The notes under the pieces are model-generated. The model made no database searches. It saw only the letters and a program-made list of their open reading frames with translations, and was not told where the DNA came from. 64,000 nt of DNA from the sequence record OZ346151.1, one strand, 5' to 3'. This DNA comes from a phage. The position numbers were made by a program, and so were the translations under genes. Shown here piece by piece: positions 56,024 through 56,785 of the stretch. The first letter of the stretch is position 1; every line of letters starts with the position of its first letter.

Positions 56024-56785
56024 TTAAAGTTCCATAAAGTTTTCTACAGTTTCAATAAATGCTTTATCAGAGAAAGCGTCAACAGCACCGTTAAACCATA
56101 CAGGGATCCCGCGATCCTCATATTGATAAAGGTCGCTACGTGAAATGCCACTCCCATCTGCACTCTGCGAGTCATACTTGTTTACAATCAGCAGTTTTGT
56201 GCCTTTACAAGTAGCAGGAAACAATTCCCAGTTAAAATTAATAACTGTGTTAGAACAACCTACTAGGATCACCATATCATTGCTTGTGAGAGATGTCAAC
56301 AGGTCATACATGTCTGTATACTTAGGAGCAACCTCACCGAAGAACACTACATTGGGCTTAACCCAGGTATACTTGCCTGTATCTACCTCCGTGTATCCGA
56401 TATTTTTAATTACATCATTACCTTCAGCATCTTCGTAGGTGATTTCAGGCAAATACCCGTGGACATGTAAAATATCTTCATGTTTTACACCAGCACGCTC
56501 CAGCAAATCATCTACATTGGTGGTAAGGTTGATCACACGACCAGACCAGCGGGAATACCACTCAGCGATCCGAAGATGTGCAAGGTTAGGATCAACACTG
56601 CCCAGAGCTACACGACGTGCATTGTAAAAGTCATGCACCTTATAGTAGTTCTTGGCAAAGGTGTGGATGTTGCACACCTCATCGATGCTGAAATTCTCCC
56701 ACATTGCAGTGCTACCAGATCGGAAAGTGGGAATACCAGATTCAGCGCTCAAACCAGCACCGGAGATAATAATCAGTCGTCGCAT
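56024..56785 (-). CDS. Sir2-family (sirtuin-like) NAD-dependent enzyme lacking the zinc-ribbon cysteines
   Basis: GAGLSAESGIPTFRS, TTNVDDLLERAG, LHVHG, VVFFGE, ILVGCSNTV; no CxxC pairs after HG; RBS GAGGA. Confidence 0.8.
   Translation of the reverse strand: MRRLIIISGAGLSAESGIPTFRSGSTAMWENFSIDEVCNIHTFAKNYYKVHDFYNARRVALGSVDPNLAHLRIAEWYSRWSGRVINLTTNVDDLLERAGVKHEDILHVHGYLPEITYEDAEGNDVIKNIGYTEVDTGKYTWVKPNVVFFGEVAPKYTDMYDLLTSLTSNDMVILVGCSNTVINFNWELFPATCKGTKLLIVNKYDSQSADGSGISRSDLYQYEDRGIPVWFNGAVDAFSDKAFIETVENFMEL

Follow-up and report, generated by a model that had tools for sequence, protein, structure and literature searches.

Sirtuins encoded by bacteriophages have been discussed in connection with both RNA repair and protein deacetylation. 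Iyer, Burroughs & Aravind (2022, Viruses 14:1977; PMC9503650) described a 'distinct clade' of phage sirtuins in RNA-repair neighborhoods of three types, the second being 'prototyped by Escherichia phage V5' and by Proteus phage Mydo, and predicted that the phage sirtuin removes RNA 2'-phosphates in the manner of KptA/Tpt1; the same paper cites some sirtuins (SirTM) as ADP-ribosyltransferases. Earlier, in 2016, Skliros et al. (Front Microbiol 7:1807; PMC5107563) found no zinc ligand site in the Sir2/CobB proteins of Vibrio phages phiSt2 and KVP40, proposed salt bridges in place of the metal, remarked on the T5 homologue, and suggested deacetylation of host acetyl-CoA synthetase (Acs), not RNA repair, as the function. 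In literature searches, we came across no experimental work on a phage sirtuin. Here we analyze a sirtuin gene located at positions 56024–56785 (minus strand) of a 64,000-nucleotide stretch of phage DNA (sequence record OZ346151.1, hereafter the window), and compare its protein, its zinc-free state and its gene neighborhood with those of other phages and of cellular and defense-associated Sir2 proteins.

The open reading frame (ORF) starts with ATG and encodes 253 amino acids, while the plus-strand frame of the same interval is crowded with stop codons and holds no ORF. The protein matched the Pfam SIR2 profile (PF02146) with 98.2 bits (cut-off 24, E = 6.9e−28, profile positions 1–178 of 180) and phrog_2162 in a PHROG profile search (E = 1.5e−108); the Sir2 assignment is far beyond chance. 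A Shine-Dalgarno (SD) sequence, GAGGA (56791–56795, minus strand), was read 5 nt before the start codon and overlaps the stop codon (56796–56794) of the preceding gene. The Escherichia phages isim, CarlMeissner (Bas48) and Alma, together with further members of the genus Vequintavirus (rV5-like), share > 99.9% identity with the region. A 3.2-kb query taken from it is covered to at least 80% by 118 records, and the near-identical records label the gene as 'putative Sir2-like protein' or 'sirtuin domain NAD-dependent deacetylase'. Approximately 25 records named 'Campylobacter phage' (MG065653, MG065661, MG065676 and others) match E. coli rV5-like phages with 99–100% identity across these genes and are probably mislabelled or contaminant assemblies. 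With tblastn, relatives were detected in 1,012 of 50,697 GenBank phage records (~ 2% of sequenced phages). The carriers comprise rV5-like, T5-like, Mydo/4MG-like, phi92-like, phAPEC8-like and Vibrio schizo-T4 (including KVP40-like) phages as well as 350-kb jumbo phages, and the query is 44–59% identical to the sirtuins of the T5, Mydo-like, phi92-like, Vibrio and jumbo phages.

All sirtuin motifs of the Rossmann fold that were looked for could be placed on the translation: GAGLSAESGIPTFR at residues 9–22, TTNVDDL at 88–94, H109-G110, VVFFGE at 146–151 and LVGCS at 174–178. In an alignment of 44 diverse clade members (A1), G9-A10-G11, S16-G17, F21-R22, N90, D92, H109-G110 and F148-F149-E151 were invariant. 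A wider search of 1.8 billion cluster representatives gave 5,496 matches at E ≤ 0.001, and in the 142 best full-length ones, on which the counts are based, H109 and N90 were conserved without exception. The sirtuin cofactor-binding loop GIPxFR is retained together with the GAGxS, NxD, HG and FGE motifs, and the class III YxxR is kept as F53-Y54-N55-A56-R57-R58, with Y54 and R57 invariant in the same alignment and YxxR found in 101 of the 142 representatives. Since its catalytic and nicotinamide adenine dinucleotide (NAD)-binding residues are invariant, the protein almost certainly binds and turns over NAD+, and is probably an active, NAD+-consuming enzyme. The best NCBIfam matches were deacylase models with scores far under the curated cut-offs (122.6 vs. 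243 bits, and 104 vs. 320 bits for prot_deacyl_CobB), and the clade is uniformly acidic, with a median isoelectric point (pI) of 5.1 and no member above 6.05.

The only cysteines of the protein are C38, C177 and C193, so none falls within the 43 residues (H109 to E151) in which sirtuins usually carry CxxC...CxxC. The closest relatives were gathered as 120 clusters with 46–93% identity to the query, 113 of which could be matched for the segment between HG and FGE (7 could not), and a CxxC pair was present in 0 of these 113; per segment there was no cysteine in 66, one in 46 and two in 1. Among the 142 representatives of the wider search, 38 had no cysteine in this segment and 83 had at least four, yet in the latter the segment is of equal length (~ 43–48 residues) and has the same central 'IGY' motif. 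As the segments of zinc-bearing relatives equal the phage segment in both respects, the phage module is a zinc ribbon stripped of its ligands, not a deletion. The loss of zinc co-varies with a change from TQN to TTN: threonine occupies the glutamine position of TQN(I/V)D in 37 of 51 zinc-free but in only 11 of 91 zinc-bearing representatives, 76 of which have the glutamine. In addition, the proline of the VYP substrate loop is replaced in the query (VIN(F)). The sirtuins of T5, phi92-like phages, Vibrio phage nt-1 and the jumbo phage SE_PL are all zinc-free, with TTNVDD in T5, phi92-like and SE_PL and TANVSD in nt-1, the canonical glutamine being absent from all four. By these comparisons, the phage clade as a whole is characterized by its zinc-free state and by the change from TQN to TTN.

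With respect to the origin of the clade, the query is 43–46% identical to zinc-bearing representatives. One of these, P0145, is ~ 43% identical to rV5-like sirtuins, and a tblastn search of phage records found no phage homologue closer to it than these. P0145 has an 88%-identical copy in Helicobacter saguini, located among genes for peptide deformylase, an NADH dehydrogenase subunit, LolA and TGT, and from this chromosomal context the P0145-like Helicobacter protein is a housekeeping cellular sirtuin. Because a zinc-bearing representative has such a close copy in a housekeeping setting, the phage clade looks like a phage-specific, zinc-free offshoot of cellular/bacterial class III (CobB/SIRT5-type) sirtuins. 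A lead to a published zinc-free sirtuin of cellular origin (Sir2La) was dropped, as the review examined makes no mention of one. The Vibrio schizo-T4 proteins reported to be zinc-free (phiSt2, phiGrn1, KVP40) are homologous to the sirtuin of the window. The protein of the related Vibrio phage nt-1 shares 46% identity with the query over 76% of the length of the latter and has no cysteine between HG and FGE; the Vibrio gene differs in not being adjacent to an RNA ligase or a cREC (cyclic-phosphate-processing receiver) gene.

The initial annotation, which was made from the sequence alone, had read this interval as a Sir2-family gene of a virulent phage with all Rossmann-fold motifs present and both zinc-module CxxC pairs absent. 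Each of these statements was borne out, the coding strand being minus and the phage rV5-like. The novelty that it implied was not supported, as the gene is annotated in > 100 near-identical genomes, the zinc-free state was reported in 2016 (PMC5107563) and the neighborhood in 2022 (PMC9503650); the gene, its zinc-free state and its neighborhood are already known from literature and annotation. The family and the gene neighborhood are those of the clade of Iyer et al. and of PHROG 2162, from which nothing material differs. What the present comparison adds to the description of that clade is the clade-wide zinc loss with the TQN to TTN change, the equal length of the module in zinc-bearing cellular relatives, and the finding that linkage to RNA repair holds for only about a third of the sirtuin lineages.

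An AlphaFold2 model built from 44 homologues reached a mean predicted local distance difference test score of 89.6 and a predicted template modeling score of 0.88, and its confidence extends to the cysteine-free small-domain strands (110–118, 124–128 and 142–146). The structure comparison that had been suggested to separate sirtuins from defense-associated Sir2 NADases returned canonical deacylases for all 50 best Foldseek matches in the PDB (CobB, Sir2Af1/2, Sir2Tm, SIRT5, SIRT2), with CobB at the top (E = 1.5e−18, template modeling (TM) score ~ 0.75) and no defense-associated Sir2 among them. By sequence, the best solved relatives were E. coli CobB, Sir2Af1 and human SIRT5 (E ~ 1e−21). The phage protein shares with CobB (PDB 1S5P, 6RXJ) and SIRT5 the Rossmann fold with small domain and the GAGxS, GIPxFR, NxD, HG and FGE motifs, and its class III YxxR stretch, FYNARR, is identical to that of CobB. 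It differs from them by the missing zinc cysteines, by the replacement of TQNID with TTNVD and of VYP with VIN(F), by an extra C-terminal helical tail of ~ 45 residues, by scores under the NCBIfam CobB cut-offs and by being carried by a phage in an RNA-repair operon. The defense Sir2 NADases (ThsA, DSR1/2, Sir2-HerA, SPARSA) have in common with it the Rossmann core of the Sir2 superfamily and the lack of a Cys4 zinc ribbon; unlike them, it keeps the sirtuin cofactor loop and acyl pocket, consists of one domain and lacks a sensor or partner (SLOG, HerA, prokaryotic Argonaute (pAgo)/APAZ, or a large C-terminal domain), and belongs to a virulent phage with RNA-repair neighbors and not to a host defense island. 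None of the PADLOC defense Sir2 models matched the sirtuin at E ≤ 0.01.

On the minus strand of the window the gene order is RNA ligase, cREC, sirtuin, MazG-like, two small ORFs and DNA ligase. The first cassette gene (57141–58076) encodes an Rnl1-type RNA ligase of the T4 RnlA family (Pfam RNA_lig_T4_1, E = 1e−14; phrog_562, E = 2e−65), annotated as RNA ligase in MZ501054.1; a comparison with PDB sequences that was intended to type it as T4 Rnl1 or as 2'-phosphate-requiring Trl1 gave no match at E ≤ 0.01. It overlaps by 4 nt with the gene of a 116-residue predicted cREC protein (56794–57144, minus strand; PF20274, E = 9e−14, 52 bits vs. a cut-off of 27), which is followed after 8 nt by the sirtuin and, after another 13 nt, by a gene for a 237-residue MazG/HisE-like protein (55297–56010, minus strand) preceded by a strong AAGGAG SD. 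The 427-residue ATP-dependent DNA ligase (Pfam DNA_ligase_A_M and OB_2) lies at 53387–54670 on the minus strand. Divergently transcribed, on the plus strand, are genes for a 136-residue P-loop polynucleotide kinase (58177–58587; Pfam AAA_33, E = 1e−10; phrog_505), annotated as such in a near-identical record, and a 184-residue calcineurin-like metallophosphoesterase (58595–59149; Pfam Metallophos and Metallophos_2; phrog_547), a candidate RNA 3'-end phosphatase. Six tRNA genes (62085–62894, plus strand; six matches to Rfam RF00005), annotated as Arg, Tyr, Lys, Thr, Ile and Pro in MZ501054.1, are ~ 3 kb away from the cassette.

By its predicted domains, this cassette is an RNA end-healing and sealing set. 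The suggestion that the sirtuin belongs to a counter-defense type of islet is consequently supported, the cassette being like those with which phages counter anticodon nucleases. Its placement between a MazG-like protein and the RNA ligase was right overall, except that the cREC gene intervenes between the sirtuin and the ligase. The MazG-like identity itself is plausible from phrog_671 (nucleotide pyrophosphohydrolase, E = 6e−22) and from the EExxE...D motif (invariant E52, E53, E56 and D76), and it rests on these two because the PDB profiles gave only a marginal HisE match (E = 0.13). This all-alpha NTP-pyrophosphatase motif is confined to the N-terminal ~ 100 residues, and the remaining ~ 130 residues at the C terminus (SNDSK ... 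GKIMKP), although conserved, resemble nothing known. As in the neighborhoods described by Iyer et al., an RNA ligase, a cREC, a nucleotide kinase, a MazG-like protein and a phosphoesterase are all found within 3 kb of the sirtuin. No Macro domain, the partner expected for SirTM-type systems, appeared among the neighbors scanned with Pfam in the window or in the T5, phAPEC8/phi92-like and jumbo phage loci, and no NAD-salvage genes are annotated in the 49 kb examined of the rV5-like genome, unlike in phi92 and the jumbo phage.

The neighborhood survey covered 64 related viral loci with flanks of ~ 6 kb, the sirtuins being clustered at 75% identity (n = 25), and all three published neighborhood types (PMC9503650) were reproduced independently. 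The ligase, cREC, kinase, phosphoesterase, MazG-like and DNA-ligase genes of the window recur around the sirtuin in rV5-like, Mydo/4MG-like and other 140–150 kb phages, whose sirtuins are only 44–56% identical; the DNA ligase is co-located with the cassette in 15 loci and in phi92, and accompanies it in the rV5-, Mydo- and phi92-like groups. Three T5-type clusters, with 28 loci in total, have a gene for a HAD_SAK_2 RNA-repair phosphatase just downstream of the sirtuin in every locus, with two small ORFs in between in T5. The unrelated 349-kb jumbo phage SE_PL has an Acb1-like 2H phosphodiesterase, the sirtuin, an unknown gene, a Nudix and a cREC (PF20274, E = 3e−23) in a row. Universal linkage to RNA repair was rejected, as the phi92- and phAPEC8-like loci and many others have no such neighbors. 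Further observations from these loci include a 7-kb stretch of SE_PL (Salmonella, L069:1-7001) that holds annotated nicotinamide mononucleotide (NMN) adenylyltransferase and nicotinate/nicotinamide phosphoribosyltransferase genes together with the 2H, sirtuin, Nudt16-like Nudix and cREC genes and looks like a combined NAD-salvage, nucleotide-signal and ADP-ribose-processing islet. The T5-like Providencia phage PR1 carries a cREC gene within its tRNA array, and a DUF7275/DUF7277 protein is encoded ~ 3 kb upstream of the sirtuin in unrelated phages, namely a phAPEC8-like contig (L032:2712-3716) and Vibrio phage nt-1 (L070:1843-2604).

The reading that we tentatively favor, while giving it less than even confidence, is that the sirtuin would perform an NAD+-dependent, KptA/Tpt1-like step in the repair of tRNA breaks made by host anticodon-type nucleases. 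In such a scheme, a host nuclease would break the tRNA and the cassette would repair it: the sirtuin would be co-transcribed and translationally packed with the Rnl1-type ligase, the cREC and the MazG-like pyrophosphatase, and the kinase and metallophosphoesterase would complete the set. Opening of a 2',3'-cyclic RNA end would leave an RNA 2'-phosphate, which, following Iyer et al., would then attack C1'' of NAD+ and release nicotinamide. This reading is preferred because of the operon structure, because genes for enzymes of cyclic phosphates and RNA ends are repeatedly linked to the sirtuin, in phages as distinct as the rV5-like, T5-like and jumbo groups, because the clade-specific changes (TQNID to TTNVD, VYP to VIN) adjoin the NAD ribose and the substrate loop, and because the invariant YxxR pocket binds anionic groups. 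The likeness to KptA/Tpt1 is a proposed and purely functional one, consisting of NAD+ use, nicotinamide release, the part of the ADP-ribose 2''-OH in the second step, and ties to RNA ligases and cyclic phosphodiesterases as proposed for the sirtuin, whereas KptA/Tpt1 (PF01885) has an ART fold unrelated to that of Sir2 and the sirtuin is no member of that family. A tblastn search with E. coli KptA found no KptA gene in the window or in the surveyed sirtuin loci, which we count in favor of an RNA-repair role. KptA is present in 98 phage records, mostly of Erwinia, Dickeya and Klebsiella jumbo phages and Clostridioides phages, which are largely other phages than those with the sirtuin; the neighbors at three KptA loci had no Pfam matches and no similarity to any protein of the sirtuin module. 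Taken somewhat more broadly, the idea that the sirtuin acts on RNA and is not a protein deacylase appears possible, if still short of probable. It could either be a non-ART RNA 2'-phosphotransferase whose product, ADP-ribose cyclic phosphate, would be cleared by the cREC and the pyrophosphatase, or an NAD+-dependent eraser of a host-toxin acyl mark on tRNA or aminoacyl-tRNA.

Several points weigh against a repair function. A recognizable RNA-repair neighbor lies within ~ 6 kb in only 9 of the 25 sirtuin clusters, and phi92-like phages keep the cREC/phosphoesterase/ligase/kinase/DNA-ligase/MazG-like cluster with the sirtuin ~ 30 kb away. The synteny of the rV5-, Mydo- and phi92-like groups may be non-independent evidence, since they share much of the gene order of this cluster. 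A uniformly acidic clade looks unusual for an RNA-binding phosphotransferase, an objection tempered by the cassette ligase, which is also acidic (pI 6.0). The T4-type kinase/phosphatase (Pnkp) and Rnl1 pathway needs no removal of a 2'-phosphate. Moreover, the activity of cREC is itself a prediction, and the literature searches turned up no experiments on a phage sirtuin that could be set beside the proposal. Finally, the closest structural matches are without exception deacylases, the protein retains the FGE loop, the catalytic histidine and the YxxR pocket, though the VYP proline is replaced, and the zinc-bearing representatives with 43–46% identity are presumably ordinary deacylases, one of them cellular and housekeeping.

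These last points lead to the alternative that we regard as almost as likely as RNA repair, namely an ordinary CobB-like lysine deacylase (a deacetylase or, via YxxR, a desuccinylase/demalonylase) acting on host or phage proteins such as translation and transcription factors or the catalytic lysines of the neighboring ligases; the location of the gene in the operon would then be incidental or regulatory. The closeness of CobB, Sir2Af1 and SIRT5 in sequence and fold, the deacylase models at the top of the NCBIfam matches, the housekeeping Helicobacter copy of a zinc-bearing relative, and the invariant Y54 and R57 beside a canonical FGE loop and catalytic histidine all argue for it, as do the 16 of 25 lineages with no RNA-repair neighbors, the acidity of the clade and the dispensability of 2'-phosphate removal in the T4-type route. 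A Nudix or MazG-type neighbor could equally clear O-acyl-ADP-ribose. The deacetylation of host Acs has been proposed for a Vibrio phage homologue (PMC5107563). It fits less well with NCBIfam scores so far under the curated cut-offs, with the clade-specific replacement of the near-universal TQNID glutamine and of the VYP proline, and with the recurrence of cyclic-phosphate and RNA-end enzymes beside the gene in rV5-like, T5-like and jumbo phages.

We consider it unlikely that the sirtuin is instead some other NAD+-dependent counter-defense enzyme, i.e., an ADP-ribosyltransferase on a host protein or nucleic acid, an eraser of acyl marks on RNA or aminoacyl-tRNA (e.g., those of GNAT toxins), or a destroyer of nucleotide- or NAD-derived immune signals together with 2H/Acb1-like, Nudix and cREC proteins. 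The SE_PL gene, positioned between the gene of a 2H enzyme of the Acb1-like, anti-CBASS type (CBASS, cyclic-oligonucleotide-based antiphage signaling system) and the Nudix and cREC genes, near annotated NAD-salvage genes, is consistent with this, and so are the tRNA and tRNA-repair genes that surround the sirtuin in the window and the ADP-ribosyltransferase activity of SirTM-type sirtuins (as cited in PMC9503650). On the other hand, the macrodomain partner that SirTM-type systems have was missing from the scanned neighbors, nothing direct points to such substrates, and the protein has the catalytic histidine and acyl pocket of deacylase-type sirtuins.

The least probable explanation, and one to which we give very little credence, is that of an NADase depleting or remodelling the host NAD+ pool like the defense-associated Sir2 effectors, as put forward in the initial annotation: every sirtuin consumes NAD+ and the phage's own DNA ligase is ATP-dependent, so that a loss of NAD+ would be tolerable, but the defense-type NADase was rejected and manipulation of the NAD pool found no support, given the missing PADLOC match, the retained GIPxFR and YxxR, the canonical deacylases that make up all of the top 50 structural matches, the single-domain architecture, the related jumbo phages in which the sirtuin is paired with annotated NAD+ salvage genes and not with depletion functions, and the presence of the same sirtuin in T5, a phage that we take to rely on an NAD+-dependent ligase.

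Other features of the window were noted outside the cassette. According to the annotation of the near-identical record, a putative HNH/homing endonuclease (171-residue ORF, 52048–52563) and an endolysin (52793–53263) are encoded between the DNA ligase and a C5-cytosine methyltransferase. The interval 18400–19350 contains no ORF of at least 50 amino acids, is the point at which the gene blocks switch from the plus to the minus strand, and corresponds to an unannotated span in MZ501054.1. It is rich in short repeats, among them four copies of ATAGTTGCC(C/T)TG (18703–18894), and carries a perfect 18-nt inverted repeat (18752–18769 / 18886–18903); the interval may serve as an origin or have a regulatory role.

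The observation of this sirtuin itself adds nothing beyond existing annotation and literature; an RNA-acting sirtuin is already published as a prediction, and novelty would lie in its demonstration. If the protein were merely a deacylase, it would imply a phage-driven resetting of the host acyl-proteome. If it removes RNA 2'-phosphates, Tpt1 chemistry would have evolved convergently on another fold, phages would possess a complete 'heal-and-seal' pathway of tRNA repair of the fungal/plant type, and the consumption of NAD+ by the phage would be linked to RNA repair, now that NAD+ depletion is recognized as a major bacterial defense. With an action on RNA, a sirtuin would for the first time be shown to have a nucleic-acid-directed repair activity in phage counter-defense, and cREC would gain its first tested substrate.

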